A program made the position numbers and the translations under genes. The notes below the pieces were generated by a model, which did not search any database, was not told the origin of the DNA, and was given only the letters and a program-made list of their open reading frames with translations. This document shows, in pieces, positions 1,337 to 36,559 of a DNA stretch of 36,559 nucleotides. The stretch is from a virus (Duplodnaviria; Heunggongvirae; Uroviricota; Caudoviricetes): positions 1-36,559 of IMG/VR virus record IMGVR_UViG_2724679237_000007. One strand, 5' to 3'. Each line of letters opens with the position of its first letter. The stretch's first letter is position 1.

Positions 1337-2733
1337 AGTATACCTCTCTTTTTCATTGCACCGAGCAGGATGTCCTGCACTGTTCGTTTTGAGTTGCGCC
1401 GTTCCATCACCATGTCGTCCATAGTGTCGGCAGCGATGATGTGGTGAATGAACACCGGGCGGTTGTGTCCGGCCTGGATCTGCCGGGTTGGCCCGATGCG
1501 TTCGATAATTTGTTGGTACTGCTCCAGATCCCACCAGTGCGAGAAAAACACCAGTATGTTGCCGCCGTCCTGCATGTTCAGACCGTGGCCTGCACTGGCA
1601 GGGTGCGCGAACAGCACCGGGATTTTTCCGGTGTTCCAGTCGCGCAGCGTCTGCGGATACTGGCCAAGGTGTCGACCACGCGGGAATGCTTTTAGCAGTC
1701 GTTCGAGGTCGTGCTTCCAGTGGTATGCAACAAGCACCGGCGCGCCAGCAGCTTCGGTCAGTATGCTGTCCAGCGCCTGCAGCTTCGCGTCGTGCAGTTC
1801 TGACCAGTTCCCGGCATCGTCGGTGTACACCGCGCCGCTGGCGATTTGCAGACACTTCGCCGTCTTTGCCGCGGCGTTCGGCGCTTCGATGCCCTCGCCG
1901 TTGAGTTCGAGGAACATTTCTTTTTCCATTTCGCGATACTGCTGGCGCGTCTTCGGTGGCATGTCTACGCGGATCACGTTATGGATTGGCTCCTTGATAT
2001 CGAACCAGTCGGCGGCGTCCAGTGAGATAGTGACGTCGGCCAGCGCCCGCTGTATCTCGTCCTGTGAGTGAGCGAACGGCTCCAGCTTCGTCCAGCTCTG
2101 CCCCGGAAACTGTATCGAGTTGAACCAGCGGGAAGTAAACGCGCCCCAGGTGCGACCCAATCGCTGCCCCTGATCGACAAACCACGCCTGCCCCCACAAA
2201 TCCACCAGGCCGTTTGGCGCTGGCGTGCCGGTGAGATTCACCCAGCGCCGGGCGTACTTATGCGCCACTTTGCCCAGTGCCGCTGCACGCTTGCCACCCC
2301 CGCGCAGCCGGAAGGATTTTAGCCGGGTGCTTTCGTCGGGGATAACGGTACCGAACGGCCAGCGGCCGCCCAGCTCTTCCACCAGCCAGACCAGATTGTC
2401 GTAGTTGATGGTGAACACGCTGGCGTTGCTGTTCGCCAGCGCCGCAGCACGTGCCTTAGCGTTACCGACAATCGGCTGCACCTCGATATTGCGCAGATGC
2501 CCCCACTTTACCGCTTCATCAGGCCATGTGCTGGCAGCCACGCGCAGCGGCGCGAGAACCAGCGCGGGCTGTGTCTCCGCTCCCGCCATGAAGAGGTCTT
2601 CCAGCGTGGTGAGCGTCGCCACGGTTTTACCCATGCCCATGCCCGCCCAGATGTTGCAGCGGTGAATGTCGATTTCGTGGTTGATGATGAGGTCCTGGTA
2701 AGGGCGGGGAATAAAGATTTTAGATGAGGTCAT
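1333..2733 (-). CDS. SNF2/DEAD-like phage helicase
   Basis: 466 aa with Walker A GMGMGKT near the N-terminus and helicase C-terminal region; start overlaps the methyltransferase stop by 14 nt. Confidence 0.8.
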   Translation of the reverse strand: MTSSKIFIPRPYQDLIINHEIDIHRCNIWAGMGMGKTVATLTTLEDLFMAGAETQPALVLAPLRVAASTWPDEAVKWGHLRNIEVQPIVGNAKARAAALANSNASVFTINYDNLVWLVEELGGRWPFGTVIPDESTRLKSFRLRGGGKRAAALGKVAHKYARRWVNLTGTPAPNGLVDLWGQAWFVDQGQRLGRTWGAFTSRWFNSIQFPGQSWTKLEPFAHSQDEIQRALADVTISLDAADWFDIKEPIHNVIRVDMPPKTRQQYREMEKEMFLELNGEGIEAPNAAAKTAKCLQIASGAVYTDDAGNWSELHDAKLQALDSILTEAAGAPVLVAYHWKHDLERLLKAFPRGRHLGQYPQTLRDWNTGKIPVLFAHPASAGHGLNMQDGGNILVFFSHWWDLEQYQQIIERIGPTRQIQAGHNRPVFIHHIIAADTMDDMVMERRNSKRTVQDILLGAMKKRGIL

Positions 2734-3769
2734 ATCCTGCGCATTCCATAAACGAGCGGATGAATGTAGCGGCAGCTGGCGCGACTATCGCGTTGCCGTA
2801 GGCGCGCAGTCGTCCCACTCTGCTGGTAATCCCATGAGCCAGCGGGAATGTGCCGGGTTCAACTGGCCGCCAGCGACCATCCCGGCAGAGGAGCCAGTCA
2901 GCATCATCCCAGCTGCCGCTAATCGTATTGGGCCACAGATTCTCGCTGCGCCGCCGAGAGTCGTTCCCCGTTCGGTATGATTGGCTGCGGCTCCCTCTCC
3001 CCGAACCCGGTTGTTGTCGATCGTCGTCACCGTCGGCCATCCACTCAGGCAGGCATAATCCTGTAAGTTCGGTTGTCGGCCCGCTAAGGTTTCCAGACCG
3101 CGCTTTGTCTCCGGCTGTGGATTGGTGTTGCAGGTTGGCGTGTACCATCCCGCCAGGTGGGCAAAGTCCCTCAGGGAGCTGTGCAAGGGGTTGCCGGATG
3201 GTCGACGATCTCCAGACATTTTCCTCAATGCTATTGAGGCGCTTCCGCCACCACTGTGATCGGTCGCCGCTGGAGTCGGCCACCCAATAAGCTCTGTCTC
3301 GGATATGCGGGGCACCGACGCCCGCAGCCGGAAACGGGACAAGCCCAAAGGCGTAGTCCACTGCTTCCACGTCAGTTTGTACAAGATCGAACCAGGCATT
3401 GACTCCCGCAACCTGTTCGCCAAATACCAGCTCAGGGCGTCGCTCGCTGATGAGGTGGAAGAAGGCTGGCCAAAGGTGCCGCTCGTCAGCAAACCCATTT
3501 CCTTTGCCTGCCGCGCTGAAAGGCTGGCAGGGGCAGGAGCCTGTCCAGACCGGGCGAGCGTCGGGCCATCCTGCCAGACGCAGGGCGTAAGACCAGACGC
3601 CGATCCCGGCGAAGAAATGGCACTGTGTAAAGCCTCGCAAGTCGTCTGGTGCGACATCCTCGATACTCCTCTCGTCAACTTCACCAGGGGCGATATGTCC
3701 CGCGGCAATAAGGTTACGCAGCCATTGCGCTGCGTTCGGGTCTATTTCGTTGTACCAGGCTCCCCGCAC
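2720..3769 (-). CDS. DNA (cytosine-5)-methyltransferase
   Basis: 349 aa with FAGIGV (motif I, FxGxG) and PCQPFSAAG (motif IV, catalytic Cys). No cognate restriction endonuclease is visible nearby. Confidence 0.8.
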
Positions 3770-4821: not shown

Positions 4822-5583
4822 TTAAGAGGAAGCGTTAGCTATTTGAGCTTGTGTAAATTCAAAACCTGAATGCTGTAACCGTTGCACCAGTCGAGGAACA
4901 GTTTCTCGTACATGGTCGTTGAAGTTCAGATATAAAATTCCGTTAGCATCAGAAGGTTGTTCTAAATGTTGTTTCTGCAAAATAGCTACGTTACTGCGCC
5001 CTAAGGACGAAAGAAGCATACCCATCTCGAGCACAACATTCTGTCTTGCACGAGGCTGGATTTCAGCTTCACCGGCGCGCTTTGAGTACCCCATATCGTC
5101 AGGTGTGAGAAGCACAATCCCGAATCGGGTAGCTGTTTGCCCCTGACCGATTTCACGTTCCAGCTCTTCAATAATTGTGAGCCCAGTCCCGCCAGTATTC
5201 TGCAAAATGAAATGGTCTGGCAACCCGAGTTTATGGAGTATTAGCTCAAGTTGTTCCTTTGCCGCATGATCATGGCCGTGAACAATGAAAATCTTTTTTG
5301 GAATCTCAGCAGGTTGTTCAACAGATTGAGGTGCCGCTGCGGGTGGCGTTCCTAAATGGGCCATTATTGCAGATTCAACATTGGGGCGTTCTTGAGGGTT
5401 ACCCTGAAGCTGAATAGTACGGGTAGCGTAAAGGTTAACAATTACACCATTCGCTAAACGATAGCAGTCACAAGCCCCACGCTGTTCATGGTCAAAATTG
5501 GTGAACCCGCACTCCCTTAAAAAGTCAGGAAATGATTCTCTTGGGTGTGGATAGGTGATCGGCATTTCAGTTAGTTCCTGCAT
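4822..5583 (-). CDS. TIR-like (Rossmann, nucleotide-binding) domain protein with an uncharacterised N-terminal domain; candidate defense effector
   Basis: 253 aa. C-terminal half KKIFIVHGHDHAAKEQLELILHKLGL...GIVLLTPDDMGY...ARQNVVLEMGMLL matches the prokaryotic TIR-like / SLOG-type pattern (vFIvHGhd...LTPDD). N-terminal ~80 aa has no family I recognise, followed by a Pro/Ala linker. Clearly lower GC than flanking genes. Confidence 0.6.
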   Translation of the reverse strand: MQELTEMPITYPHPRESFPDFLRECGFTNFDHEQRGACDCYRLANGVIVNLYATRTIQLQGNPQERPNVESAIMAHLGTPPAAAPQSVEQPAEIPKKIFIVHGHDHAAKEQLELILHKLGLPDHFILQNTGGTGLTIIEELEREIGQGQTATRFGIVLLTPDDMGYSKRAGEAEIQPRARQNVVLEMGMLLSSLGRSNVAILQKQHLEQPSDANGILYLNFNDHVRETVPRLVQRLQHSGFEFTQAQIANASS

Positions 5584-5647: not shown

Positions 5648-7711
5648 TCAATCTTTTCTGTAGTGGTACGCCTCGAAGCCGCCAGCGTTCAGCGGGATGT
5701 CGGGCGCCCATTCGGGGTTTGTGGAGAGCAGCGCGGAAAGCGCCGTATCGTTGAAATCGTCGGTGTCCGGCGCTTCGGTGATCACCTCATCGTGTACCGT
5801 CAGCACAATGCTGTAACCGGCATCCTCGATCAGCGGCATGTTCCCGGCCAGAACGTCGCGGGCGGCCGCCTGGGTGACGTTTTCCGCGAGCTTGCCGGAG
5901 TAGGTTTTAAGCCGTTGCCATTTGCGCGAGTAGGAATTAACGCCCCGGTAGGTGATGTCGCCGTCCTCGATCGTCGGTGACGGATAACAGACCGCGCGCC
6001 CGGACGGCAACTGGATGCGCAGCCAGGCACCATCGCGCCGGACTTTCAGATAACCACAACACAGGGTTCTTTTCGGGGTTGCAATGGCGGCGCGAACGGT
6101 GCGCTCAATCTCGTGCCAGAAATCGCAGGTAGCTGGGTGCGCCCGGCGCCACAGGCGCTTTAGCGAGTCACAAGCGATAAATACGCGCTCCGACAGTCCG
6201 TAGGTTACTTTGCGTTTGACCGATTCGTCATACCAGCTTTTCGCCTCGTGGATCACCTCACGGGGGATATTCGGCAGCGCGGCGTTCGCCAGTTCGTTGA
6301 GGTCGAGGCCGTAAACAAGGGCGAAGGTCAGGAATGCCGCGACGCCTCCGCCATATCCTAACCCGAGTTCCATTACTTTGCCGATCTGACGCTGGTATTT
6401 ATCAACATCGTCCGGCGAGATATTGAAGGCACGGGCATAGGCCAGTTTATACAAGTCCGGGCCGGTGCCCTCGTCGTACTCACGGAACGCGTCCAGCTTC
6501 CACTGTTCACCCGCCAGCCACGCCAGCATTCGCCCTTCGATATTTGACAGATCGCTAACCACCAGCTTTTTGCTTTCCGGCGCCATGATGCAGCCGCGTA
6601 ACGCTGAACTGGTCAGTTCCATGATGTTATTGAACAACAGATCGGCACATCCGGCTTTCAGGGCGTCGATACCGAAGTCTATTTGCTCCTGCGGCAGCGT
6701 TGGCCGACTGAGGTTTTGCGGCTGAAACAGCCGGCCCGCCCAGCGCCCTGTTCGTGATGCCCCGCAAAATTGCAGCGTACCGCGCAGGCGCCCGTCGTGG
6801 CTGACGCCTTTTATCAGCGTTTTGTATTTGCTGGTGCTGGTCATACTGGCCTGTAATCGGATCGCCAGCAGTTCTTTGACCGCCGGGGGTAAGTCCGGGT
6901 CGGCAATGCGGCGTTCGAGCGTCGATTTCTGCATGTCCGGCAATATCACGCCGTAGGATTCGACGATGTGTTTTAGCATGGCGTCGCGCTGTGTGGCCGC
7001 CTGGACTTCGCCGCCGGTCATTGCCTGCGTGCGTTTTGCCAGGCGCTTTTGCTCCTGGTCTACCGCTTCGACGGCCGCGTGCGCGAGCTGCACATCCATG
7101 CAGGCGCCACGGTCGTTAATCCGCTGGTCGCGGTGCCAGTGCGCCAGCTCGGCTCCCTGATAGTTCCACTTTGGCAGGCGCTTATGCACTTCGCGCATGG
7201 CCTCGATATCCAGCCCGGCGTATGCAACGAACCGCCGCCACTCTTCCGGGTGCGTTTTGCTGGTGGCCCGGCGCAGTTTGCTGTTTTTCGGTCGAGGCTT
7301 GCAGAACAGCTGGATTAGCGCCGTACCCCCTTTATCCTTCGCTTTGTCCTGCGGAACGCCCAGCACTTCACACAACGCGCCTAATGCGCCGGGGAGTCCG
7401 TGCGCCAGCGCCTGCACCATAGTATCGCGCCAGCGGGTGATATCGGGTGCCAGTTCCGGCATTGCATGGCGCAGCACCGTGCGGTCGAAATGTGAATTGT
7501 GCGCCCATACTTCTACCTCCGGTTTTTTGAGCGCGAGACGCAACTCCAGAGGTATTTTTTGGGTTTCGGTTAAGTCCCACACTTGTACGGGGGCGTCGTC
7601 GAGCGCCCAGGCGAACAGCATAACCTCGGCACCCTCTGAATACGCATGGGTCCCGTTTTTTATCGGCACTTCGGAGAAAGTTTCGAGGTCGAGATAAAGG
7701 CGTTTAGACAT
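5648..7711 (-). CDS. Family A DNA polymerase with 3'-5' exonuclease (T7 gp5-like)
   Basis: YLDLETFS (Exo I), [14 protein letters not shown] (motif A), [16 protein letters not shown] (motif B), VLTVHDEV (motif C). ATG at 7709-7711 has a GAGGTGG RBS; the track ORF starts at an upstream GTG (7726). Confidence 0.85.
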
Positions 7712-8201
7712 GGGGCCACCTCGCACCGGAAATAATCATACCCACCGCACGTCGTGATATTCCGTACCTACGACCAAGTTCAGTTTGTGAGACTGAATCG
7801 CCCAGCGTTTTTATCTCCCGAGCGATGGCCTCTGTAATTTTTGCCATTCCATTCTTTTCACCTCTATTATCGGGAAAAGTCAGGCGACCATTGCGAGCGA
7901 CTCGCTTCATATTTTCCTGACGGTCAACCCATTCAAGATTGCCGACGGTATTGTTTCTCTTGTCGCCATCGAGATGGTCAACTTCTGGTTTATTTTTGGC
8001 CGTCGGAAGAAAAGCAGTTGCGACTAGTCGATGTACAAATATGTTGCGAGAGATGCCGTTATCGCATAGCTTCGCATGCAGATACCCGTCTCTGTGTTTT
8101 GACGGTTTGAGAATGTGGTGGTGGATATTTCTAACTCTTCCCAAATTGCTGACCTCGTAACGGTCTTCAAATCCGGGTGCAGGTTTCCAAATTTCGGGCA
8201 T
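7704..8201 (-). CDS. HNH homing-type endonuclease (NUMOD4/HNH_3-like)
   Basis: [15 protein letters not shown]-terminal motif and [14 protein letters not shown] core. Start chosen at ATG 8199-8201 (GAGGA RBS, 6 nt spacing) rather than the track start at 8246. Confidence 0.8.
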
Positions 8202-8392
8202 AAATAGTCCTCGCGGGTGCTTTGCGAAAAGGGATGCTCTTTGCAAAACACCCGGCGCGTGGCCGGGTGGGTGGGTGTTTACGCTGTGGCTTCTTCGTCA
8301 GAAGGGAGGCCGATCATCTCGTTGAGCGTTTCGCGGCGTATCGCGGGCGGCAGCGGGCGGGCATAGCACCGTGAGGGACGCGCTTTCCGGGA

Positions 8393-13773: not shown

Positions 13774-14148
13774 ATGCCTAATTCACCGCCAACGCTGGCG
13801 TTAATCCTTGAAATGTACCGCCAGCACAAGACCCCGTTCGACCTGTTTCTGCTGGTGCTGGCGGGTGTGTTCGTCCGCATTTTTTACTGGGGCGGTAAAT
13901 TGCGCGAAGCGTGTGGCGATGTGCTCATCGGCACCACCATCATGATTTTCGTTGCAGCGCGGGTGCCAAATATCGTGCTGAATCTGCCGGAAATTGGCGC
14001 AGTGACGGTCAATCACAACGAACTGGCATTCGTCATCGGGATGCTGGGGTACAAAGGCTTTAAAGAAGTGGCGTTCTGGGTGCTGAAAAAACGGTTCGGT
14101 ATCGACGTTCAGGCGCTCAGGCAGAAAAAACAGGAGAGCAATCAATGA
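13774..14148 (+). CDS. Holin (putative)
   Basis: 124 aa with hydrophobic transmembrane segments and a charged C-terminus; immediately precedes and overlaps the endolysin start. Confidence 0.6.
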   Translation: MPNSPPTLALILEMYRQHKTPFDLFLLVLAGVFVRIFYWGGKLREACGDVLIGTTIMIFVAARVPNIVLNLPEIGAVTVNHNELAFVIGMLGYKGFKEVAFWVLKKRFGIDVQALRQKKQESNQ

Positions 14149-14531
14149 CGTTTAAATTTTCGGCACGCAGTGAAAAAAATCTGGTCGGCGTACACCCTGA
14201 ATTAGTGAAAGTGATGCGTCGCGCGCTGGAGCTGTCGACCGTGGATTTTGGTATTACGGAAGGGTTGCGTATGGTTGAGCGTCAGAAGCAACTGGTGGCG
14301 GAAGGCAAATCGCAAACGATGAATTCGCGACACCTGACCGGGCACGCCGTGGATGTTTTTGCTTATCCGACGCCAGCAGGTAGCTGGGAGTGGACGTATT
14401 ACCAGCAGATCGCCAACGTCGTGAAACAAGTTAGCCGGGAGCTGCATATCCCCGTAGAGTGGGGTGGGGACTGGAAAACGCTGAAAGACGGGCCGCATTT
14501 TCAGTTGCTGTACGCGCAATATCCAGCATAG
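14145..14531 (+). CDS. Endolysin, peptidase M15 family (L-alanyl-D-glutamate peptidase type)
   Basis: 128 aa; SRHLTGHAVDV...DGPHFQL zinc-ligand pattern of M15 peptidases. Confidence 0.8.
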   Translation: MTFKFSARSEKNLVGVHPELVKVMRRALELSTVDFGITEGLRMVERQKQLVAEGKSQTMNSRHLTGHAVDVFAYPTPAGSWEWTYYQQIANVVKQVSRELHIPVEWGGDWKTLKDGPHFQLLYAQYPA

Positions 14532-14543
14532 GGAGGCCTGGTC

Positions 14544-15086
14544 ATGGCTAAGAGCCTGAAAGCAAAGCATGAGATGTTTTGCCGGGAGTTTCTGGTCGAT
14601 CTGAATGCTACGCAGGCTGCCGTCCGCGTCGGGTACGCCGTAAAGCGTGCGCACGTAACCAGCGCTGAACTGATGGCTAATCCTGGTATCCAGCAGCGCA
14701 TCAATGAACTCAAAGAGCAGCGCAACGAGCGCACCGACATCAACGTCGATTATGTTCTGCGTCGCCTGGCGGAAATCGATCAGATGGATGTTGCCGATAT
14801 TCTCGCTGACGGCGGCGGGCTGAAGCCAATTTGCGACTGGCCGAAAGTGTGGCGCACGTCGCTGTGCGGGCTGGATATCGAGTCTGCGACCGTCAATCAC
14901 GACGAAACTACCACTGAGTACATTCTGAAAAAGATCAAGTGGCCGGACAAAGTGAAGAACCTGGCGCTGTTGGGCAAGCACGTTAACGTCAACGCCTTTA
15001 AAGAAGTGCATGAACATAACGTCAATGTGACGTTGGCCGATCGTATGGCAAAAGCCCGCAGGCGTGCGGCGGGAGGTGGCGATTGA
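14544..15086 (+). CDS. terS: Terminase small subunit
   Basis: 180 aa; N-terminal KHEMFCREFLVDLNATQAAVRVGY typical of Terminase_2-type small subunits; overlaps the TerL start. Confidence 0.75.
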   Translation: MAKSLKAKHEMFCREFLVDLNATQAAVRVGYAVKRAHVTSAELMANPGIQQRINELKEQRNERTDINVDYVLRRLAEIDQMDVADILADGGGLKPICDWPKVWRTSLCGLDIESATVNHDETTTEYILKKIKWPDKVKNLALLGKHVNVNAFKEVHEHNVNVTLADRMAKARRRAAGGGD

Positions 15087-25782: not shown

Positions 25783-28277
25783 TGCCAGTTGTACCTACAG
25801 TCGCCGGGCGACAGGTTCAGAGCCACGGCGTATCGACGGGTGGTTTTAATGCGTATTCCGGCGCAGGAATTAGCGATGTACTGGCCGATGCTGCGGGTAA
25901 ATACGCTGGTGTATTTGCGGAGGCCAAACAGCGGGCAAATGTCGCTCTGGCGCAGGATGCATCGTTGCAGCTCAGCCAGCGCGCCAGCGTGATGATGAAT
26001 GACCCAGAAAAAGGCCTGTTAAACCTGCAGGGCAAAAACGCTATCGGCAAAGGTCAGGAGTACACGGCTATGTTTGACAGCGCCGCCGGGGAGATTGCCG
26101 GCACGCTGCCGGATGATGTCGCCCGCAATATGTTCCTGCAGCATGCGCAACAGCAGCGTATCCAGTTCACCACGCAGGCAGGACGGCATGAAATCGGCCA
26201 GATTAACGCGTATGAGGAAGGGCAATTCCAGGCGACGCTGGCGAATAACGCGCAGAACGCGGCGGCGCTACACGGCGATAATGCCGGATATATTTCGGCC
26301 AATCAGCAGACGTTCCAGCAGATAGAACAGTTTGGCGCAGCACGCGGCTGGAGTGATGAGCAGATCACCGCAAAAAAAATGGAGTTTAAAGAAAAAACCG
26401 CCATGGCTACTGCAGCCAATGCTATAGGCGCTAACTATATGGCCGTTCGCATGCAAAATGGGGAACCGGCTGATAATTTTGGTTCTCAGCGGGTGTCTGG
26501 CTCTGGCAGCGCAGAACCGTGTGGTATCTGGAACAATAACCCTGGAAATTTGCGGACATCAAAAAATCCCTGGGACGGGCAGACGGGTGATGACGGCGAG
26601 TTCGTTACATTCGCCACTCCGGAACACGGGATACGTGCTTTGGGTAAAAACCTGCTGTCTTACCAGCGGCAGGGATTTGTAACACCCAGGCAGATTATTT
26701 CCCGCTGGGCTCCTCCCGAAGATGGCAACGATACGGAGGCTTATATTGAAAAGGTATCATCGGCGCTGGGTGTATCAGACAATGAAAAGCTAAACTTGTC
26801 GAACATCAAAACACTTTCAACGGTGAGTAAAGCCATTATGGCTACGGAGAATAACGGAGAGGTTGGCTATTCCGACCAACAAATCAGTACCGGGTTACAG
26901 GCTGCCCTAGGCGCAACGCAGCTACCTGCATCACCTGACGCGCCAAAACGCTATACCGGCTCCGCCTGGTTTGACGCTCTGAATACCGCAGACCAGGCGA
27001 AAGTGATGCGTCAGTTAGATGCACTGGATGAGCAGTCGCGGGTTAAGTATCGCTCGGAGCTGACCGGACGTGTGAAAGATGCCAGCGCGGCGTATACGCG
27101 CGGCGTCGATTTTCCCAATCCGCCATCGCAGCAGGATTTTATCCGGGCATATGGTTACAATGATGGTTTGGTGCAGCACGCTGATTTCGAAAGGCTGCAA
27201 CAGCTTGGATCGGATATCGGCGTGGTAAAATCCCTGCCTGTTGCTTCTCAACTGGCACTGCTGGAAGAAAGGAAACCAATCCCAGGTGACGGTTATGCGG
27301 CTGGTGTCTCCCGGTATGAGTCGCTGGCGCAGGCAATTCAGCATGTGAATGCCGTTCGGCATGATGATCCTGTCCGTTATGCCCAGGAGCAAAATATTGC
27401 GTCGCCGCTGGATATCAGATCCCCGCAGTCGTTAACCCGCGGTCTGGAGCAGCGCGCTGATATGGCTCCTGATCTGGTGGTTCAGTACCAGACGCCGCTG
27501 GCGGTATTCAGCAAGGAAGAAGCCGTCCAGCTTACTTCCCTGCTGAAAGATGCTCCGTCAGGCCAGAAGGTGGCCTATCTTGATGCGATGCGTCAGTCAA
27601 TTAAAGATCCCGTCGTTTATAAAGCCGCGTTGCAGCAGGTGACATCCGGAAGCCCTTCATTTGCTGTCGCAGGGCTGATAATGGATAAGCCCGGTAATGT
27701 GGTGACGGAACGAAATACCTTTTCTGACAATATCTCCGTTACACCACAGGACGCAGCGCAAATCATTCTTGAAGGCAATCCGGCACGCAAAGGCGCTGAT
27801 GGTGCAAAGGGGATAGCCATGCCTAAGGACAGCGATATGCGGACGGCGTTTTCTGAGTACGTAGGTGATGCGTTCGCCGGTGATACCCAGGGCGCTGAAA
27901 GTGCATACCAGGTCGCGCTGGATTACTACGCGGGGAAAAGCCAACGCGCCGGGGATATATCTGGCAGCTATAACGACAGGCTATTTAAAGAGGCAATGTC
28001 GGTAGCCACTGGAGGTATCTACGATTACCAGGGTATGGGTAAAATCATGTTGCCGTGGGGTATGAGTCCCGATCGGTTTGATCGCGAGATAAGCAAGGCA
28101 TGGATGTCTCAGGTGGTAGATAAGGGCGTCAGGGTTGACCCGATTAACTACTCTCTGCAGAGCTTCGGCGACAGCCGTTATCTTGTACGCTACGGGACAG
28201 GCTATCTTATCGATAATGATGGAAATCCTGTCGTGCTGGACATAACCGAAAATAAAATCCGGGACATTCCGAAATGA
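25782..28277 (+). CDS. Internal virion (ejection) protein C-like, with a conserved Cys/His central domain
   Basis: 831 aa; parallels T7 gp15; central region aa ~235-330 (PCGIWNNNPGNL...ATPEHGIRALG) looks like a globular, possibly enzymatic domain. Confidence 0.5.
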   Translation: MPVVPTVAGRQVQSHGVSTGGFNAYSGAGISDVLADAAGKYAGVFAEAKQRANVALAQDASLQLSQRASVMMNDPEKGLLNLQGKNAIGKGQEYTAMFDSAAGEIAGTLPDDVARNMFLQHAQQQRIQFTTQAGRHEIGQINAYEEGQFQATLANNAQNAAALHGDNAGYISANQQTFQQIEQFGAARGWSDEQITAKKMEFKEKTAMATAANAIGANYMAVRMQNGEPADNFGSQRVSGSGSAEPCGIWNNNPGNLRTSKNPWDGQTGDDGEFVTFATPEHGIRALGKNLLSYQRQGFVTPRQIISRWAPPEDGNDTEAYIEKVSSALGVSDNEKLNLSNIKTLSTVSKAIMATENNGEVGYSDQQISTGLQAALGATQLPASPDAPKRYTGSAWFDALNTADQAKVMRQLDALDEQSRVKYRSELTGRVKDASAAYTRGVDFPNPPSQQDFIRAYGYNDGLVQHADFERLQQLGSDIGVVKSLPVASQLALLEERKPIPGDGYAAGVSRYESLAQAIQHVNAVRHDDPVRYAQEQNIASPLDIRSPQSLTRGLEQRADMAPDLVVQYQTPLAVFSKEEAVQLTSLLKDAPSGQKVAYLDAMRQSIKDPVVYKAALQQVTSGSPSFAVAGLIMDKPGNVVTERNTFSDNISVTPQDAAQIILEGNPARKGADGAKGIAMPKDSDMRTAFSEYVGDAFAGDTQGAESAYQVALDYYAGKSQRAGDISGSYNDRLFKEAMSVATGGIYDYQGMGKIMLPWGMSPDRFDREISKAWMSQVVDKGVRVDPINYSLQSFGDSRYLVRYGTGYLIDNDGNPVVLDITENKIRDIPK

Positions 28278-30079
28278 GTTATTTTGGCCTTGATCCAACA
28301 TCAGAGCGAAACCAGCTTTCGCTGGCCGTCGAAAACCCGGTTCTCCCTCAGGAAGCCGGGTTTTTTGATAACGTGCTGTTGTCTCCCCTTGAAGGTCTGG
28401 TTAATGGCGCTATCAATAAGCCCGCGCTCAGTCTGGCGATTGGTCTTGATGATACTCTGTCTCCATATGCCAGTATGCTGGATGATGCCGTTGGCACCAG
28501 CACAGAACAGTGGTTTCATGACCAAGTCGCCGTTGAATTAGCCAGCGTAAGAGCCGCGACACCCAACCCTGCAACCACAGGTACCGCCGGGCAGATACTG
28601 AACAATATGTTTGATATGGGGGGGCAATTCGCTATTGGCTCCCGTCTCGGTGGTCCGGTGGCTGGCGCGGTGACGGTGAGCACGATGCAGGGCGGCGCGG
28701 ATTATGCCGAATCGCGTGCGCGGGGGGTCGATCCGGCTACCGCCCTGCAAAAAGCTACGGTGACAGGGCTGACGGCGGGCGCGGGTACGTTAATCCCCGC
28801 GTCTATTGGACTGCGCTCCGTGGGGGCTGCGTCCGGCGTTCTGGAGAAAGCAATGGCGTTTGGCGGAGACGTTGCCTATTCCGCCGGCAGCAACATGGCG
28901 ATGGGAATGGCACAGCGCGGCTTTACGCACGATATTCTCTCCGGTGCGGGCTATGAGGAAATGGCGGGGCAGTATCATGCACTGGACAGCCAGGCGCTGG
29001 CGGTTGATGCGGTGCTGGGCGTTGCCTTTGGCGGTGCCGGACATTTCCTGCATACAGGCACTGGCGATAGAGCACCAGCGCCGGAAGTCAGCCAGGTGGA
29101 TATTGATGCTGCGTTAACCACTAACTCAGCGCTGCATGTGGAAACCGACGCTGCGCCGGGTATCCCGGCAGACCCAATTAGCCGGACGGAACATGTTGCC
29201 TCCGTCAATAAGGCGCTGGCGGATATCAGCGCCGGACGTCCTGTCGATGTTTCCGGGATACTCAGCCATGCGGATTTTATGCCCAAAGATATGAATGACT
29301 TTATCCGCGATGTGTCGGTGCAGGCCAGTGAGTTTTATCCTGATCTTCCACTTTTTTACCTGGACGACGGTGCAGCCATAACCGGAAAGACAGTCAGCGA
29401 TCATATCGCGCTGCTTCAGCCCGACGCCGCAGCGCTAATGGATCGTGGCACCCGCGAATCCCTTACAGGGGAAATCCACCGTAGCGAAAACCGCCTGGAG
29501 ACATTATCCGGCGAGCTTACAGCAGTGAAAAACGAGCCTCCGAAAGGCAGCGGAAAGGCGCTTGCACAGGCCCGCGCTGCGCACGTTGACAGGGTGAAAT
29601 CCCTGAACCGGGATATTGATGCGCTGAAAAGCGATATTGCCGCAAAAAAAACAGCGCTGGCCGATCACTCTAAGGGTGGAAAGAATTTTGAGGCCAAAGC
29701 TGATATATCCCGCCTGCGTCAGGGGATTGTACCTGAGCGCCTGAAACAGTCTGTTACCCGTCAGAGTGCGGAGGAACTGGGACAGAACATAGATATCCCC
29801 CCAAAATCCGCACCAGTTGAACCGGAAGTTTCGCCCGGCAAGACCAGCGCGGAAAAAAGTGCTGATGAAAGTGCGGCGACAGTGGACGGTGATGCGCAAC
29901 TGGCAAGCCATGCTTTGCGTACCAATCCAGACATGGTGATCCAGACGGAGGATGCTGGCGGGAATATGGTGGAGGTCAGGGCAGCGGATGTTATGGCCGA
30001 TGCGGATGCGGTGATCAGGCAGGCAGAGCAGGACGCAAGCCTGTTTGATGCCGCTGTAGCGTGTTTTCTTGGGGGATGA
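28274..30079 (+). CDS. Internal virion (ejection) protein
   Basis: 601 aa, Ala/Gly-rich, coiled-coil C-terminal segment; with the next ORF comparable to T7 gp16. Confidence 0.5.
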   Translation: MSYFGLDPTSERNQLSLAVENPVLPQEAGFFDNVLLSPLEGLVNGAINKPALSLAIGLDDTLSPYASMLDDAVGTSTEQWFHDQVAVELASVRAATPNPATTGTAGQILNNMFDMGGQFAIGSRLGGPVAGAVTVSTMQGGADYAESRARGVDPATALQKATVTGLTAGAGTLIPASIGLRSVGAASGVLEKAMAFGGDVAYSAGSNMAMGMAQRGFTHDILSGAGYEEMAGQYHALDSQALAVDAVLGVAFGGAGHFLHTGTGDRAPAPEVSQVDIDAALTTNSALHVETDAAPGIPADPISRTEHVASVNKALADISAGRPVDVSGILSHADFMPKDMNDFIRDVSVQASEFYPDLPLFYLDDGAAITGKTVSDHIALLQPDAAALMDRGTRESLTGEIHRSENRLETLSGELTAVKNEPPKGSGKALAQARAAHVDRVKSLNRDIDALKSDIAAKKTALADHSKGGKNFEAKADISRLRQGIVPERLKQSVTRQSAEELGQNIDIPPKSAPVEPEVSPGKTSAEKSADESAATVDGDAQLASHALRTNPDMVIQTEDAGGNMVEVRAADVMADADAVIRQAEQDASLFDAAVACFLGG

Positions 30080-32580
30080 TAATGCGAAGTGAATGTATTA
30101 AGGCAGTGTCTAAAGCGGCGGGGCGCACGCTTAACCAGGCGGAAATCAAAGGTATTGAAGAGAGAATTACCCGCAACATGCGCGCACTGGCGCGTGATGA
30201 CCGGATGGCGTGGCAGTCCAAATCAGAAGCCACACGGCTGACAGAAGCAGCAAAAGCCGCATCCGATGAACTGGTGGCCGAAGCAAAACTGAAGAAGCGC
30301 CGCGTGGCGCTGCAAATAGTGGCGCACGATATCATCAACCAGCACATTACCGGCTATAGGGGAAAGGATGGCGCAATCGGCGCACTGAATCGGGTGCTGG
30401 CGTTCAGTGCCGACGGTAAATCAAATTTCTTCTCTGTGGAGACGCGCGGCAAGGCGACACGCGACCAGGCGTTGGCACAACTGCAGGATTTGTTCGACGC
30501 CAGCGACCCGAAAATATTCGGGTTGTTTGAGAATAAACAGGGCGTTCGTGACATCGTGTTTGAGATTTTCGGTCAGGACACTGGCAATGCGGCGGCGAAG
30601 AAAGGGGCCAAAGCCTGGCTGGATACCGCCGAATCCCTGCGCAGTCGCTTTAACGACGCGGACGGCGATGTTGGAAAACTGGAGGACTGGAACCTGCCAC
30701 AGCACCATTCCCAGAATAAAGTGGCAAAAGCAGGTGAAGCAAAATGGGTGTCCGATATCGCAGGCAAACTGAACCGGAGCAAATACGTTAACCCGGACGG
30801 CAGTCTGATGAATGATGTGGAGCTGCAGGCGTTTTTGACTGAGGCGTATAAAACCATCTCTACTGGTGGCGTTAACAAGATAAAACCAGGAACGGTAGCC
30901 GGTGGCGGCGCGAGAGCGAACCGTGGTAACGAATCCAGGCAGATCCACTTTAAGGATGCGCAGTCTTACCTGGGTTACCAGCAGGCCTACGGCGAGCGTA
31001 ATTTCTGGCGGGTTATTGAGGGGCATGTTAGTGGCGTCAGCCAGGATATCGCACTGGTCGAAACCTTCGGCCCTAACCCGGATCACACCTTTAAATACTT
31101 CTTGGACAAGACTTATAAAGAAACCGTTGAGGTGACTCCAACGGATGCAGGGAAAATCGAAAAAAGCCGGATCAACACCGAAAATCTGTACGACTTTGTG
31201 GCGGGTAAAACGCTGCCGGTGGCGAACAGGCACATCGCGGAAACAGCCGATACGCTGCGAAATTTGCTGGTGGCCAGCAAACTGGGGTCTGCGGTGATCA
31301 CCTCCCTGACCGACTGGGGGATGATGGGCATAACTGCGCGGGTAAACAATCTGCCGATGCTGAAGCTGGCGCGCAACATGATTTCCACGCTGAACCCTGC
31401 CAATAAAGCAGATCTGCGGATGGCTCGACGTGCAGGACTGGCGATGGAGTCATTACTTGGCTCAGTTAACCGCTGGGGTGGCGATAACCTTGGGCAGTCA
31501 TGGTCGTCAAAAATGGCGTCCACGGTGATCCGCGCCTCCGGGTTAACGGCTCTGTCGGATGCCGGAAAACGCGCCTACGGCGTCACAATGATGAGCGCTA
31601 TCGGGCAACTGACGAAAGACCACGCGGCGATGTCTGCGCTCGACCCTGTGGATAACCGGATGCTGCTGTCAAAAGGCATCACCGATCGTGACTGGGCAAC
31701 CTGGAAGCTGGCACAACAGGAGGACTGGGGAAACGGCAATAACACCATGCTGACGCCTGAAAGTATCATGCGTATTCCCGACGCTAAACTGCAAAGCCTT
31801 GGCGTTTCTGAACGTATTCGCTCCGAAGCCGCCCGTAAGTTGCTTGGCGTGGTGCTGGAAGAAGTGGATATGGCGGTGGTGACGCCGGGTATCCGAGACC
31901 GCGCGCGGCTGATGGATAACATCCAGCGCGGAACGGCAAAGGGGGAGTTGGTGCGCAGCTTCTTTCTGTTCAAATCATTTCCGATTGCGATGGTCGCCAG
32001 GCACTGGTCGCGCGGCTTCAGTATGCCGACGGCGGGCGGAAAAGCAGCATATATCGCATCGACTATTGCCGCGACGACGGTGCTTGGCGCAATCTCTATG
32101 CAACTGAATAATGTCATTTCCGGGCGTAATCCGCAGGATATGAGCGAAGGGCGGTTCTGGCTGGCGGCGATGTTAAAAGGTGGCGCTCTGGGGCTGTACG
32201 GCGATTTCCTTTTCAGCGACCAGACGCAGGCGGGGCGTGGCATTATTGCGTCACTGATGGGGCCAATGGTGGGGATTGGCGAGGAAACGATCGGGCTGAC
32301 ACAGGGCAACCTGCTGGAGGCGATGCAGGGCGAAGATATGGACTTTGGTGCGGAGGCGCTGAAATTGTTCAAGGGCGTCACGCCATTTACCAACCTTTGG
32401 TATACAAAGGCCGCTACTGATCATCTTATTTTTAATAAACTGCAGGAGTATTTTTCGCCTGGCTATCTGCAGAAAATGGAAAGCAGATCACAAAGTAAGT
32501 ACGGATCTACCTACTGGTGGCGGGCTAATGATGTCCTGCCTGAACAGGCTCCGGATTTAGGTGCTGCCTGGAATCCCTGA
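30061..32580 (+). CDS. Internal virion (ejection / DNA-transfer) protein
   Basis: 839 aa; last large gene before the tailspike. Confidence 0.5.
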   Translation: MFSWGMIMRSECIKAVSKAAGRTLNQAEIKGIEERITRNMRALARDDRMAWQSKSEATRLTEAAKAASDELVAEAKLKKRRVALQIVAHDIINQHITGYRGKDGAIGALNRVLAFSADGKSNFFSVETRGKATRDQALAQLQDLFDASDPKIFGLFENKQGVRDIVFEIFGQDTGNAAAKKGAKAWLDTAESLRSRFNDADGDVGKLEDWNLPQHHSQNKVAKAGEAKWVSDIAGKLNRSKYVNPDGSLMNDVELQAFLTEAYKTISTGGVNKIKPGTVAGGGARANRGNESRQIHFKDAQSYLGYQQAYGERNFWRVIEGHVSGVSQDIALVETFGPNPDHTFKYFLDKTYKETVEVTPTDAGKIEKSRINTENLYDFVAGKTLPVANRHIAETADTLRNLLVASKLGSAVITSLTDWGMMGITARVNNLPMLKLARNMISTLNPANKADLRMARRAGLAMESLLGSVNRWGGDNLGQSWSSKMASTVIRASGLTALSDAGKRAYGVTMMSAIGQLTKDHAAMSALDPVDNRMLLSKGITDRDWATWKLAQQEDWGNGNNTMLTPESIMRIPDAKLQSLGVSERIRSEAARKLLGVVLEEVDMAVVTPGIRDRARLMDNIQRGTAKGELVRSFFLFKSFPIAMVARHWSRGFSMPTAGGKAAYIASTIAATTVLGAISMQLNNVISGRNPQDMSEGRFWLAAMLKGGALGLYGDFLFSDQTQAGRGIIASLMGPMVGIGEETIGLTQGNLLEAMQGEDMDFGAEALKLFKGVTPFTNLWYTKAATDHLIFNKLQEYFSPGYLQKMESRSQSKYGSTYWWRANDVLPEQAPDLGAAWNP

Positions 32581-32859
32581 TTATTAACCCGCTTTAATTT
32601 ATTGCCGACTGAAAACTACGTCCTGTGGGCGTGGTCATCAACAGGCTTTGGCTCTGCCTTATTGTCTTTGGATTTAAATTTACAGAATAGGCAGAGACTT
32701 CTTTTTAAGTTTTTTTAGTACGCCCCTTTGGGGCGAAACCAATGCCGCCTTCTTAGAAGGCGGATTTTTACTTCTCCTGCATTTAGCACAATTTTAATTG
32801 CCACCAACTACCGCCCGCCATTCTGGCGCTGGCGGCGCTTTGTCATAAAGAGAGACGCA

Positions 32860-35466
32860 ATGACAGTATCATCCGAAGTAAACCACAATGATTACCAAGG
32901 TAACGGGACGACTACCGTTTTTCCGTACCAGTTTCGTATCTTCAAAAAAACTGACCTGGTAGTAACCACCTCTGATCTTAATGACACTCTGACTACGCTG
33001 CGCCTGGATACTGATTATACAGTAACGGGGGCTGGTGGGTACAACGGCGGGACGGTTGTTCTTCCGTCACCACTGTCTTCTGGCTGGAAAATATCCGTGG
33101 CCCGCGTTCTTTCGATTACGCAGGAAACCGATCTGCGCAACCAGGGTAAATTTTTTGCAGAAGTGCATGAGAACGCATTCGATAAACTGACAATGCTGAT
33201 TCAGCAAGGACTGCGCTGGATTGGCCTGGCATTGTGCAAGCCGTCAACTATTGCTAATTATTATGATGCACAGGGTAATTATATCCGCAACCTGCATGAT
33301 CCGGTACAGCCACAGGACGTGGCCACGAAGAACTATGTGGATAATACAGTCGCTACGTCTACTGCTGGCTGGCATGCTGGTGATGAAGTGCTTGACCAGA
33401 AAATAGATGCAAACTTTGCTCACACGCTACGGGTTCCTGAAAGCAGCATTAATATGCTGGGGAGTGTATCAGATAGAGCAAATAAGCTGCTTGCGTTTAA
33501 CAGTAGCGGCCAGCCGATTTCTGTATTGCCGGAAAGCGGAAGTGCTACGGATGTGATGATTGAACTGGCTGCGGATGATGGCGCATCTAAAATTGGTGGT
33601 GCATTCTACGCCGATATCAGGGCCTACAACGCTGGCGGAAATCAAATCAAATGTCTGGGACGTACAAATATTTTTGACGGTGCAGATGGTGTGTTTATTC
33701 TTGACCCCTCTGATGTTGTATCACAGGATAACGACGGAACAGTTCTTGTAGATACAAATGGCGGTCGTTGGAAAAGGGTGTTTGATGGTCCGTTGAATGG
33801 GTTATGGTTTGGGATGGACAGGGGGGGGGCAAAAAGTTCCGGGGATGCTTTTAATAAAATATTGTCTGTTTCTGGAACTTTTGGGCAAATATTTATCCCT
33901 GAAGGGGTTTATTTATTGCCAGGTGGACACGATGTTCAAGAAGGGCAAAATATTTTATTTGACAATGTAACTTTAAAATCAGATGGAAATGCTGCAACAA
34001 CTAGTTTAATTAATATTAACGCTGATGATGTTTCAATTGGTGGCAGCTTGATAATTGATGGGGAAGTGAGAGATCCAGGAGAGAACCCTCCACGCATTGC
34101 TATTGGGCTAAGAGTTGGAGAGCAAAGACAAATTGAACGCTTCAATTGCGCCGGGGTTAAATCTTACGGTGTCGTGTATGGTGTTTTTATTACAGGCGCG
34201 AAAGATTCAACAATAAAAAATTGTCTGTCATACCGGAACTCAGACGGTTTTAGGTTAGCTTCCGTAACTTCAGGAGTTGCAAATTCATTCGGATGCGATA
34301 ATGTCAGGATAATTGATTGCATCTCCTTGGAAAACGGCATGCCATATATGCCTGTTACAGGAACAGGATCGACCGGGGGATATGCTGGATTTAAAGTTAC
34401 TGACATACCAATTTCTGATATATATTTCATAAATTGCATTGCTCGTGGTAACTGTGGGTTTGGTTTTAATATTCATGGCCATCCGTTCACTTCAATACCA
34501 AGTGGGTTTGAAATGAAAGGTTTGCATTTCATAAACTGCATATCAGATGGTAATAACATACCAGAATTTAATCTACCATCTGGATTTGTTACTGGAGCTG
34601 GAAATTGTAGTGGTTTCTATATTGGAGCGGTTGGTGTAGCAATCAAAAATGTATTTATTGATGGGTGCACTATCAAAGGACAATCTGGAGAAGCCATATA
34701 CTTCAGGGCTTTAAATGATAGCGGTTCTAATTTGAATCTAATTGAAAACATATTAGTTTCAAATTGCAGGATTGAAGGTGCTCCGAGATCACTAAATAGC
34801 AGCGTCAGAACTTCTAACTCAGCTCTTTATTTAACAGGCACGAGAAACTTGCTCTCTCAATCAAATGTTATCACTGGAGTTGAGTATCTTTATGATTTTG
34901 TTTATTATATTAATAACTCTAGGAGTGGAGTTAAGATTAAAGATGATCAGTATGACACCTCTCCTAATTTAATTTACGCTAAATCTTCAAAATTAGGAGG
35001 TGTTGTTGGGCGTATTGATATATCTGGTATTCAAGCAAGAAAGGGTGGGAAATTAAATAGTGCAACAGCCAATGTAATGATTAGGGTTGTCGATTTTGAG
35101 GAGATAATAATAGAAGGCAATAGTATCAATGATGTATCAGAAACACAATCATCTACTTTGGTAAATGCGATATTGCAACAAAATACAACTACTGATAGTA
35201 AATCAATCAAGATAATCAATAATTCATTTTCATGTGCAAATTCTAGTGTTCGAATTGGGGCACCAATAGAGATTAATTCAATAGGTGGATCAAAACTATT
35301 TAGTGGTAACACTATAACGCATTCAATAGTTGGTATTTCAGGGAACAACACTGAAAACGCAATAATCATTGCGAATCATTTTGATGCCGGAACAGTAGCT
35401 ACAAAAATATTAAATTTCCCAGCAAGCACAATTAAAAAAGCAAACATTGGACTTCCTGACAGTTAA
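32860..35466 (+). CDS. Tailspike / tail fibre with a conserved N-terminal particle-binding domain and a beta-helix (depolymerase-like) C-terminal domain
   Basis: Start at ATG 32860 (AAAGAGAGA RBS). N-terminus MTVSSEVNHNDYQGNGTTTVFPYQFRIFKKTDLVV...NYVDN is the widespread enterobacterial podovirus spike anchor; the C-terminal ~560 aa has repetitive Gly/Asn-rich beta-helix character and markedly lower GC. Confidence 0.8.
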   Translation: MTVSSEVNHNDYQGNGTTTVFPYQFRIFKKTDLVVTTSDLNDTLTTLRLDTDYTVTGAGGYNGGTVVLPSPLSSGWKISVARVLSITQETDLRNQGKFFAEVHENAFDKLTMLIQQGLRWIGLALCKPSTIANYYDAQGNYIRNLHDPVQPQDVATKNYVDNTVATSTAGWHAGDEVLDQKIDANFAHTLRVPESSINMLGSVSDRANKLLAFNSSGQPISVLPESGSATDVMIELAADDGASKIGGAFYADIRAYNAGGNQIKCLGRTNIFDGADGVFILDPSDVVSQDNDGTVLVDTNGGRWKRVFDGPLNGLWFGMDRGGAKSSGDAFNKILSVSGTFGQIFIPEGVYLLPGGHDVQEGQNILFDNVTLKSDGNAATTSLININADDVSIGGSLIIDGEVRDPGENPPRIAIGLRVGEQRQIERFNCAGVKSYGVVYGVFITGAKDSTIKNCLSYRNSDGFRLASVTSGVANSFGCDNVRIIDCISLENGMPYMPVTGTGSTGGYAGFKVTDIPISDIYFINCIARGNCGFGFNIHGHPFTSIPSGFEMKGLHFINCISDGNNIPEFNLPSGFVTGAGNCSGFYIGAVGVAIKNVFIDGCTIKGQSGEAIYFRALNDSGSNLNLIENILVSNCRIEGAPRSLNSSVRTSNSALYLTGTRNLLSQSNVITGVEYLYDFVYYINNSRSGVKIKDDQYDTSPNLIYAKSSKLGGVVGRIDISGIQARKGGKLNSATANVMIRVVDFEEIIIEGNSINDVSETQSSTLVNAILQQNTTTDSKSIKIINNSFSCANSSVRIGAPIEINSIGGSKLFSGNTITHSIVGISGNNTENAIIIANHFDAGTVATKILNFPASTIKKANIGLPDS
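33821..33829 (+). repeat. G9 homopolymer inside the tailspike ORF
   Basis: ggatggacaGGGGGGGGGcaaaaag, coding DRGGAK; lies at the GC-composition junction of the gene. Confidence 0.9.
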
Positions 35467-35473
35467 GTTACTA

Positions 35474-35524
35474 CAAGCCCCACTCACACAACGAATTAGT
35501 GGGTGGGGCTTGTACTTATTTTTT
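35474..35524. terminator. Bidirectional terminator between convergent tailspike and acyltransferase genes
   Basis: CAAGCCCCACTCAC-acaacgaatta-GTGGGTGGGGCTTG followed by tacttaTTTTTT; overlaps the acyltransferase stop. Confidence 0.6.
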
Positions 35525-36559
35525 AACTTTCGATAATAACCTTGCTAAAAGTAATGGGATTGCGATTGCAGAAAATGGATATAATAATTGGGTGTAAAAA
35601 GTATGGTAATGAACTAGAGTTTTAGTATTTCTCATGTCCCATAATCCAAATAACGAAAAAATCATGTCGAGGAATACAAATATACATAAATGATATGACA
35701 TTATTCCTCGCGAATACTTTCCTGCATCCTTTAAAAAAGTTGATAAATAAGTTCCATTAAATACAGAGGAAACAAAAAAAATTAGTAGTATGCATAGTAG
35801 AGCCATAATGGTTGTAACAACAAATCCTGATGGATATGCACTCCATGACATTATCATTGGTTTTGCTAGGCCAGATAAATATAATGATAAAACCAAGATA
35901 AATAAAATTAAAGCGATAATTTTATTTTTAAAATGTAAGATAAATGAATTGATGCAGCACCCGATCAGCATAAACATGGTGGCATATAGAACTTGAGACG
36001 TTAAGTTATATATCTGTTCACCTGTGATTTTATATATATCGGCCATGATGGTTGTAGATACGTATCCAAAACATATTGATATTGCAATTATTGTAATTTT
36101 TTGTGTTTTAGTATCTTTTATTTTTAATGACAATGAAATAATTATAGTTGATATAATGTTTGACAATAGGTATGCAAAAAGAAACCATCCAACTAAAAAC
36201 AATTCATTGTTATGGAAGTTGTTTTTGAATATTGATATTATTGTTTCAATGGGGTGTTCTGAAAATGGTAACCCAAACCCTATTCCATATATCTTAGATA
36301 TGCCAACGGAAACCATGCCGATTATTAAATACGTAACAATAAAATACATGATTATTTTTGAAAGTGTTTTTTTTATGGTTTTGAATGGGGTGATTCCATC
36401 AATAAAAAAACCACCCACAAAAAAGAATAAAGGCATATGATAAAAGTAAGGTTTGGTAATACCAACTAATATCCCCCAACTATGGCCGATAACCACAGCG
36501 ATAATCCCAATTCCTTTTACAATATACAAAGTGTCACTTTGCTCTTTAGTCAGTGTCAC
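35516..36559 (-). CDS. Acyltransferase family 3 integral membrane protein (O-antigen/polysaccharide acetyltransferase-like); N-terminus at or just beyond the window edge
   Basis: 347 aa, about 10 predicted TM segments; N-terminal VKGIGIIAVVIGHS matches the acyltransferase-3 signature; very low GC (roughly 28%); convergent with the tailspike. Confidence 0.75.
   Translation of the reverse strand: MTLTKEQSDTLYIVKGIGIIAVVIGHSWGILVGITKPYFYHMPLFFFVGGFFIDGITPFKTIKKTLSKIIMYFIVTYLIIGMVSVGISKIYGIGFGLPFSEHPIETIISIFKNNFHNNELFLVGWFLFAYLLSNIISTIIISLSLKIKDTKTQKITIIAISICFGYVSTTIMADIYKITGEQIYNLTSQVLYATMFMLIGCCINSFILHFKNKIIALILFILVLSLYLSGLAKPMIMSWSAYPSGFVVTTIMALLCILLIFFVSSVFNGTYLSTFLKDAGKYSRGIMSYHLCIFVFLDMIFSLFGLWDMRNTKTLVHYHTFYTQLLYPFSAIAIPLLLARLLSKVKK

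Follow-up and report, generated by a model that had tools for sequence, protein, structure and literature searches.

A tailspike gene and a convergent AT3 acyltransferase gene as a probable receptor module of an epsilon15-like prophage in Escherichia albertii

The stretch of DNA analysed here (the window; IMG/VR virus record IMGVR_UViG_2724679237_000007, 36,559 nucleotides) is a temperate podovirus prophage of 36.5 kb, which resembles epsilon15 and phiV10 and resides in the chromosome of Escherichia albertii EC03-127, a human isolate from Japan (assembly GCA_001514885.1, contig BBVU01000003.1). At its right end, a tailspike gene on the plus strand (32860-35466) faces a gene on the minus strand (35516-36559), which encodes an integral membrane acyltransferase of the acyltransferase-3 (AT3) family. 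We consider it probable (about 0.7) that this region is a receptor module, in which the tailspike is combined with a convergent AT3 enzyme that acetylates the O-antigen and excludes the phage's own kind. To judge from sequence comparison, the pairing is the known O-antigen conversion arrangement that is a hallmark of this phage group. The principle of combining a spike with a receptor-modifying enzyme is long established; the acyltransferase found here is a new member of this kind and belongs to an uncharacterised AT3 subfamily.

The conversion slot, the acyltransferase and the tailspike

The DNA from the terminase to the tail genes is approximately 73% identical to that of SPN1S and its relatives. 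PHROG matches were obtained for an integrase, replication genes, a CI-like repressor, a Q-like antiterminator, a holin and an endolysin and, on the virion side, for terminase, portal, capsid, tail and internal virion proteins. The structural gene set and the spike anchor are in common with epsilon15-like podoviruses (Uetakevirus and relatives), and the prophage was assigned to this group. In phiV10, a convergent oac gene is located 12 bp after the tail fibre gene and thus in the same slot as the acyltransferase gene of the window. The phiV10 record annotates oac with O-antigen acetylation and superinfection immunity, and a review of AT3 enzymes lists phiV10 Oac under O-antigen acetylation, citing Perry et al. 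2009 (PMC9558356). Both phages possess an AT3-only gene of similar size (338 versus 347 residues) next to the same type of structural module, and the GC content of phiV10 drops to 0.31 at this place. In contrast, the two acyltransferases are related only at the level of the Pfam family, and the receptor-binding parts of the two spikes are unrelated. In epsilon15, the slot is filled by gp21 and gp22, an O-antigen polymerase and an inhibitor, which are likewise convergent with the tailspike gene and act on the phage's own receptor. Their products change the polymerase linkage and inhibit acetylation, whereas the window contributes an added acyltransferase; with GC contents of 0.32 and 0.26, both genes are as AT-rich as the slot of the window. 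SPN1S, Tyrion and TL-2011b have annotated O-antigen acetylases at the same position. The acyltransferase gene is therefore found where serotype-conversion modules reside, namely in a moron slot 3' of the receptor-binding gene and inside the prophage, and the arrangement recognised in an earlier note, which had been made from the sequence alone, was confirmed.

The phages differ in what follows the slot. In phiV10, it is succeeded by the lysis genes, attP and the integrase gene, whereas in the window it abuts the right attachment site (attR). The window has its holin gene (13774-14148) and its endolysin gene (14145-14531) in the interval from the Q-like antiterminator to the small terminase (13774-15086). 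The lysis cassette of epsilon15 and phiV10 is found after the conversion slot; here it is found after Q, and the conversion cassette therefore abuts attR.

The acyltransferase gene has a GTG start codon at the last base of the window, and the same protein of 347 residues is present in the public record. It matches PF01757 (Acyl_transf_3) with E = 4.9e-12 and 46 bits at a cut-off of 31, residues 13-339 being aligned to profile positions 6-325 of 326. An R/K-X10-H motif, which has been described for AT3 enzymes (PMC9558356), is present as K15-X10-H26 in the first membrane helix; Sf6 OacA and Salmonella OafA and OafB, which are characterised O-antigen enzymes, also belong to the Pfam AT3 family. 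H26 is invariant in 37 homologues, while position 15 is mostly Lys or Arg and in a few cases Gln. The alignment of these homologues contains 18 invariant positions (H26 and 17 others), all of which are kept in the window protein. The protein contains 23 Lys and 3 Arg residues. An AlphaFold2 (AF2) model with a predicted local distance difference test (pLDDT) value of 93 is all-helical; it shows about ten membrane helices and no further domain. The protein is consequently of the same AT3-only architecture as Sf6 OacA, whereas OafA and OafB carry an SGNH domain. The best fold match is human HGSNAT, an acetyl-CoA-dependent transmembrane acetyltransferase; this match is weak by its E value (at least 0.12), with a probability of 0.99 and a TM-score of approximately 0.47. 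The earlier note's identification of the neighbour as a membrane AT3 acyltransferase agrees well with the Pfam score above the cut-off and with the all-helical model. On the basis of the intact open reading frame (ORF), the K-X10-H motif, the conserved invariant positions and the confident model, the presumed O-antigen O-acetyltransferase looks functional.

Between the two genes, a hairpin at positions 35472-35514 has a stem of 16 bp, which is followed by a U-run on the plus strand, and is likely the terminator of the late (tailspike) transcript. The fold of positions 35455-35530 has an energy of -31.9 kcal/mol (z = -6.7), and none of 200 shuffled sequences reached a comparable value.

The tailspike ORF as listed begins with a TTG at position 32728; the ATG at position 32860, which is favoured by homologues and by the public gene call, was taken instead and gives a protein of 868 residues. 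Residues 1-235 (32860-33564, plus strand) constitute an N-terminal anchor of the epsilon15/phiV10 type, which presumably attaches the spike to the tail. From residue 1 onwards there are matches to tail-protein families of PHROG, and over residues 1 to approximately 250 the identity to the N-terminal parts of the tailspikes of epsilon15, SPN1S and related phages is 60-63%. Residues 1-336 are 52% identical to the phiV10 protein, and this similarity ends at about residue 335. Residues 236-335 (33565-33864, plus strand) form a neck or adapter that is common to spikes with different anchors and is the likely zone of module exchange; the confidence of the AF2 model is low in this segment. The receptor-binding part comprises residues 336-868 (33865-35466, plus strand) and is modelled as a right-handed parallel beta-helix, presumably that of a polysaccharide depolymerase. 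Spikes with a P22 head-binding or a siphovirus Tail_spike_N anchor resemble the window protein from residues 236-241 onwards. Because relatives with different anchors begin to match at this point, sequence comparison divides the spike into three parts: the anchor, the widely common neck and the specificity part.

The AF2 model of the spike is a long all-beta solenoid with pLDDT values mostly between 80 and 95 over residues 310-863. The best Foldseek matches in the PDB are the K64-1 depolymerase (S2-4), the HK620 tailspike, a K1 capsule lyase, the Sf6 tailspike and CBA120, and a public index assigns PF27114 to the protein. Structure prediction, which had been suggested as a check for a beta-helix, thus supports a tailspike in which an N-terminal particle-binding domain is followed by a right-handed parallel beta-helix. 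A search of 5.8 billion proteins yielded no more than seven relatives of the C-terminal part, with 42-50% identity; they bear three kinds of anchor, namely the epsilon15 type, the P22 head-binding type and the siphovirus Tail_spike_N type. Five acidic residues of the spike are invariant (D462, D679, D745, E748 and E832). One of the homologues (42% identity in the beta-helix) belongs to a siphovirus prophage of Providencia rettgeri, which likewise adjoins mlaA-fadL and has no acyltransferase gene after the spike gene.

Prophage boundaries and base composition

The window extends from the start codon of the integrase gene to that of the acyltransferase gene. The integrase gene (1-1170, plus strand; 389 residues in the public record) matches PHROG_1 with E = 2e-69 and marks the left boundary of the prophage. 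Immediately to the left of it and outside the window, a gene for tRNA-Arg(CCT) was found (locus L008, 12929-13003). A perfect direct repeat of 24 bp, TTATATCCATTTAACTAAGAGGAC, brackets the integrase and acyltransferase genes: The left copy occupies the positions 219-196 bp before base 1, and the right copy begins 652 bp past the window (locus L003, 14353-14376). The attachment (att) repeat is identical to the first 24 nucleotides, i.e. the 5' end, of the argW gene for tRNA-Arg(CCT). The prophage is flanked by dsdC-dsdX-dsdA at one end and by mlaA-fadL-fadI-fadJ at the other, which identifies the argW locus. Because copies of the repeat lie on both sides of it, the acyltransferase gene is part of the prophage, as the earlier note had proposed.

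As the window stops at the acyltransferase start codon and the outer flank lies beyond it, one could argue that the enzyme is encoded by a host gene outside the prophage and that the low GC content marks an unrelated island. This is extremely unlikely, given the right att copy 652 bp beyond the gene and the short motifs TAGTACCGC and GTACACATT, which the two arms have in common. Moreover, neither the acyltransferase gene nor the 652-bp arm occurs in any of 5,426 complete E. coli genomes, while the DNA on the mlaA side is present in all of them; the right flank matches these genomes only from 161 bp beyond the repeat. The close relatives of the acyltransferase, which are phage-borne, also speak against a host gene.

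With the 5' end of the tRNA gene as its attachment core, the prophage is situated on the 5' side of argW. Kapi1, Sf6 and HK620 differ in this respect and integrate at the 3' end of argW. Two other assemblies (L007 and L010) possess a P22-like prophage with its own integrase on the 3' side, and the tRNA gene is thus sandwiched between two prophages. With respect to the backbone, the GC content of the phage body (0.54) is higher than that of the flanking E. albertii DNA (0.48-0.49), and a comparison with the 5,426 complete E. coli genomes yielded only three matches, each shorter than 100 bp. Taken together, this suggests that the backbone stems from another enterobacterial genus. Contigs with an identical upstream virion protein carried the same cassette only; no alternative cassette is known on this backbone. 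In the right arm, an inverted repeat of 11 bp, CCGCATGAGTG, flanks a segment of 126 bp upstream of the acyltransferase gene (locus L003, 13762-13772 and 13899-13909), and a copy of CCGCATGAGTG with one mismatch is located immediately outside attR. An invertible promoter between the repeats is unsupported because all available assemblies have one orientation; the repeats may be protein-binding sites. A search of 2.4 kb around the acyltransferase gene and attR with Rfam gave no RNA family.

The base composition was calculated in windows of 1 kb, which gave a GC content of 0.54 +/- 0.03 with a minimum of 0.45 over positions 1-32000. It then decreases stepwise to approximately 0.47 at 32.3-33.8 kb, to 0.38-0.43 at 33.8-34.4 kb, to approximately 0.35 up to 35.5 kb and to 0.25-0.33 in the final kilobase. 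A two-segment likelihood scan of positions 28000-36559 placed the best change point at base 33849 (log-likelihood gain 148) and a weaker one at 32385. The tetranucleotide distance of positions 33780-36559 to the phage body is 0.70, compared to 0.19 +/- 0.02 for body windows of equal size (z = 26.7). The sharp drop at about 33.8 kb, which the earlier note had described, is thus confirmed by calculation, and so are the AT-rich C-terminal part of the spike (GC 0.363 for residues 336-868) and the very AT-rich acyltransferase gene (GC 30%). The statement that the spike anchor matches the rest of the phage did not hold, as the composition of the anchor is intermediate (GC 0.477; 0.47 at third codon positions, GC3). 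The GC3 values of spike residues 336-868 and of the acyltransferase gene are 0.245 and 0.273, compared to 0.55-0.73 for most phage genes and 0.48-0.59 for flanking host genes. As the two values are alike, both segments have one synonymous-site composition, and the lower overall GC content of the acyltransferase gene comes from its amino-acid content. An explanation of the whole drop as a mere amino-acid effect of a membrane protein is ruled out by the GC3 values. Positions 32300-32860, which comprise the end of a gp17-like gene and a spacer of 280 bp before the tailspike gene, already have a GC content of 0.42-0.47; the small genes that epsilon15 and phiV10 have at this place (gp18, gp19, Bro-N) are absent.

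The change point at base 33849 falls at the 3' end of the neck. The modules were most likely exchanged within the neck, as indicated by the protein comparisons, with the compositional break at its 3' end. With respect to the swapped spike domain that had been postulated, the conserved anchor and the beta-helix are in agreement with a swap; the module itself starts at approximately residue 236 (about position 33565) and thus upstream of the compositional break (about residue 330). Nucleotide searches with the cassette gave no match in 50,697 phage records. The breakpoints rest on protein comparisons because neither this search nor that with the backbone in the complete E. coli genomes gave useful matches at the DNA level. 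Recent acquisition had also been proposed. As the slot genes of phiV10 and epsilon15 are equally AT-rich, low GC content is a standing trait of the cargo of this slot and is therefore no proof of a recent acquisition in this prophage.

Relatives of the acyltransferase and their neighbouring genes

A tblastn search with the acyltransferase against the same 50,697 phage records retrieved no relatives; the control query, phiV10 Oac, retrieved 11 records. Alignment of a profile of 37 sequences with phiV10 Oac by means of hhalign gave a probability of 7.9%. By these comparisons, the enzyme belongs to a separate AT3 subfamily and is not an orthologue of phiV10 Oac; the earlier comparison with the oac type thus has to be revised. 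A relative with 62% identity is encoded in a P2-like prophage of E. coli, beside the genes for tail fibre assembly and tail fibre. It is absent from complete E. coli genomes and is therefore not tied to any serotype. A relative with 47% identity is encoded in an epsilon15-like prophage and faces an epsilon15-type spike of 845 residues, which is 49% identical to the spike of the window, and a relative with 40% identity is encoded in P22-like prophages of Salmonella, where its gene runs into the 3' end of the tailspike gene. For the closest paired relative (L017), the GC content is approximately 40%, and the relatives in other phages are all AT-rich (0.25-0.40). These uncharacterised P2-like, epsilon15-like and P22-like cases resemble the window in subfamily, convergent orientation and AT-richness, and differ in the phage backbone. 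Their receptor-binding domains also differ from that of the window, except for the epsilon15-like pair and locus L106.

In IMG/VR, relatives with 31-61% identity were found in 22 loci, and each of these has a convergent ORF directly downstream. All 22 ORFs were read as a receptor-binding gene or a chaperone gene. The N-terminus was recognised in 19 of them (seven epsilon15 anchors, seven Tail_spike_N, two P22 head-binding domains, three P2 fibres or chaperones), and the remaining three were not typed individually. A homologous beta-helix is present in only one of the 22 loci. The close phage-borne members from enterobacteria thus show the tail-to-tail linkage in at least four architectures (epsilon15-like, P22-like, P2-like and siphovirus). 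A scan of a collection of species-representative genomes yielded mostly very distant AT3 genes; the four nearest loci are one prophage, one modification island of the gtr type and two chromosomal loci. More distant relatives of the acyltransferase (27-28% identity) are chromosomal.

This linkage bears on the question of whether the enzyme acts on another envelope glycan, such as enterobacterial common antigen, capsule, colanic acid or periplasmic glucans, or transfers another acyl group, its connection to the spike being indirect. AT3-only enzymes have many acceptors (PMC9558356), some sources label relatives as 'fucose 4-O-acetylase-like', and the acceptor is not readable from the sequence, NCBIfam containing no model for the protein. 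However, the close relatives are all arranged tail-to-tail with genes for polysaccharide-binding tail proteins or chaperones, and every characterised slot occupant in the phage group acts on the O-antigen. We therefore regard a different glycan or acyl group as unlikely.

The host O-antigen and the proposed mechanism

The repeat unit of the E. coli O181 antigen contains GalNAc6Ac at 0.4 equivalents (PMC4380953). The O-genotype of EC03-127 is EAOg3, whose gene cluster contains the full set of E. coli O181 genes, and the strain is agglutinated by O181 antiserum. Enzymes whose genes lie outside the O-antigen gene cluster typically acetylate only in part, and because the acetylation of O181 is partial, O-6 of GalNAc is a candidate acceptor; to name this position of the O181-type repeat unit as the acceptor site in EC03-127 is speculative.

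According to the proposed mechanism, the beta-helix would bind and probably cleave the O-polysaccharide of the host. In the lysogen, a separate promoter in the 652-bp arm beside attR would drive the acyltransferase gene, and the hairpin would insulate it from late transcription. At the periplasmic face, the enzyme would acetylate one of the sugars of the O-unit with acetyl groups from cytoplasmic acetyl-CoA, and the phage's own spike would fail to fit the O-antigen modified in this manner. The lysogen would then resist superinfection and would not absorb released progeny, and its serotype would shift. That the lysogen expresses the gene, which donor and which sugar take part in the acetylation and that the phage is thereby excluded are points that we infer from the precedents of phiV10 Oac, Sf6 OacA and Salmonella OafB; OacA and OafB acetylate the O-antigen and block the cognate spike in this way (PMC9558356).

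A number of observations weigh against a receptor module of this kind. BLASTP gave no match between the acyltransferase and phiV10 Oac. The RXXR motif, which is essential in Sf6 OacA, is not conserved: In its place the protein has KTIKK, and the stretch is variable within the subfamily, which, in contrast to OacA, has no characterised member. This motif was described for the first cytoplasmic loop of OacA and is not family-defining. On P22-like and siphovirus backbones, the gene after a homologous beta-helix encodes an AT3 protein of another type, or no such gene follows, and the two genes are therefore not a fixed pair; as judged from these gene neighbourhoods, the linkage is to slot and function. 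The connection to O181 is based on serology and on the similarity of gene clusters, which is 83% in another EAOg3 strain, and the acetyl group of the O181 type strain may come from an unrelated gene. Finally, promoter-like matches upstream of the acyltransferase gene are no commoner than in shuffled sequence.

Very AT-rich foreign genes are often silenced in enterobacteria. Together with the lack of a convincing promoter, this could mean that the acyltransferase gene is a silent or decaying passenger, which has no current effect on the lysogen. The ORF is of full length, all 18 invariant positions including the histidine of the first membrane helix are kept, and four loci, which come from one assembly and three read sets, carry an identical cassette, all of which argues against decay and makes a passenger very unlikely. 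The receptor module, in which the acyltransferase modifies the glycan that is recognised by the spike, can be generalised: Each enzyme of the subfamily would mask the glycan of its partner spike, and in EC03-127 the enzyme would supply the partial 6-O-acetylation of GalNAc in an O181-type antigen. This extended proposal is tentative and, in our estimate, has less in its favour than against it. If it is true, pairs of spike and acyltransferase would constitute a readable lock-and-key code for phage receptors.

Three further genes of the window, all on the minus strand, are of note. The gene at 4822-5583 encodes a protein of 253 residues with a TIR domain of the CAP12/PCTIR type (PF10137 in a public index; weak NCBIfam match to Cap12); its GC3 value of 0.38 is well below that of its neighbours, and it is a candidate anti-phage defence moron of the early region. 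An HNH endonuclease gene (7704-8246, GC3 0.44) overlaps the 5' end of the DNA polymerase gene, and a DNA methyltransferase gene (2720-3769) overlaps the helicase gene.

Lysogenic conversion of the O-antigen shapes serotyping, immune recognition and the host range of phages. E. albertii is an emerging enteric pathogen that is typed by its O-genotype. If a prophage adds acetyl groups, the serological phenotype would change although the O-antigen gene cluster stays as it is. The pair described here offers a concrete test case with a single spike, a single acyltransferase and an O-antigen that resembles O181. The annotation of receptor modules in prophages could furthermore profit from the fact that genes of this subfamily are repeatedly found tail-to-tail with receptor-binding genes.

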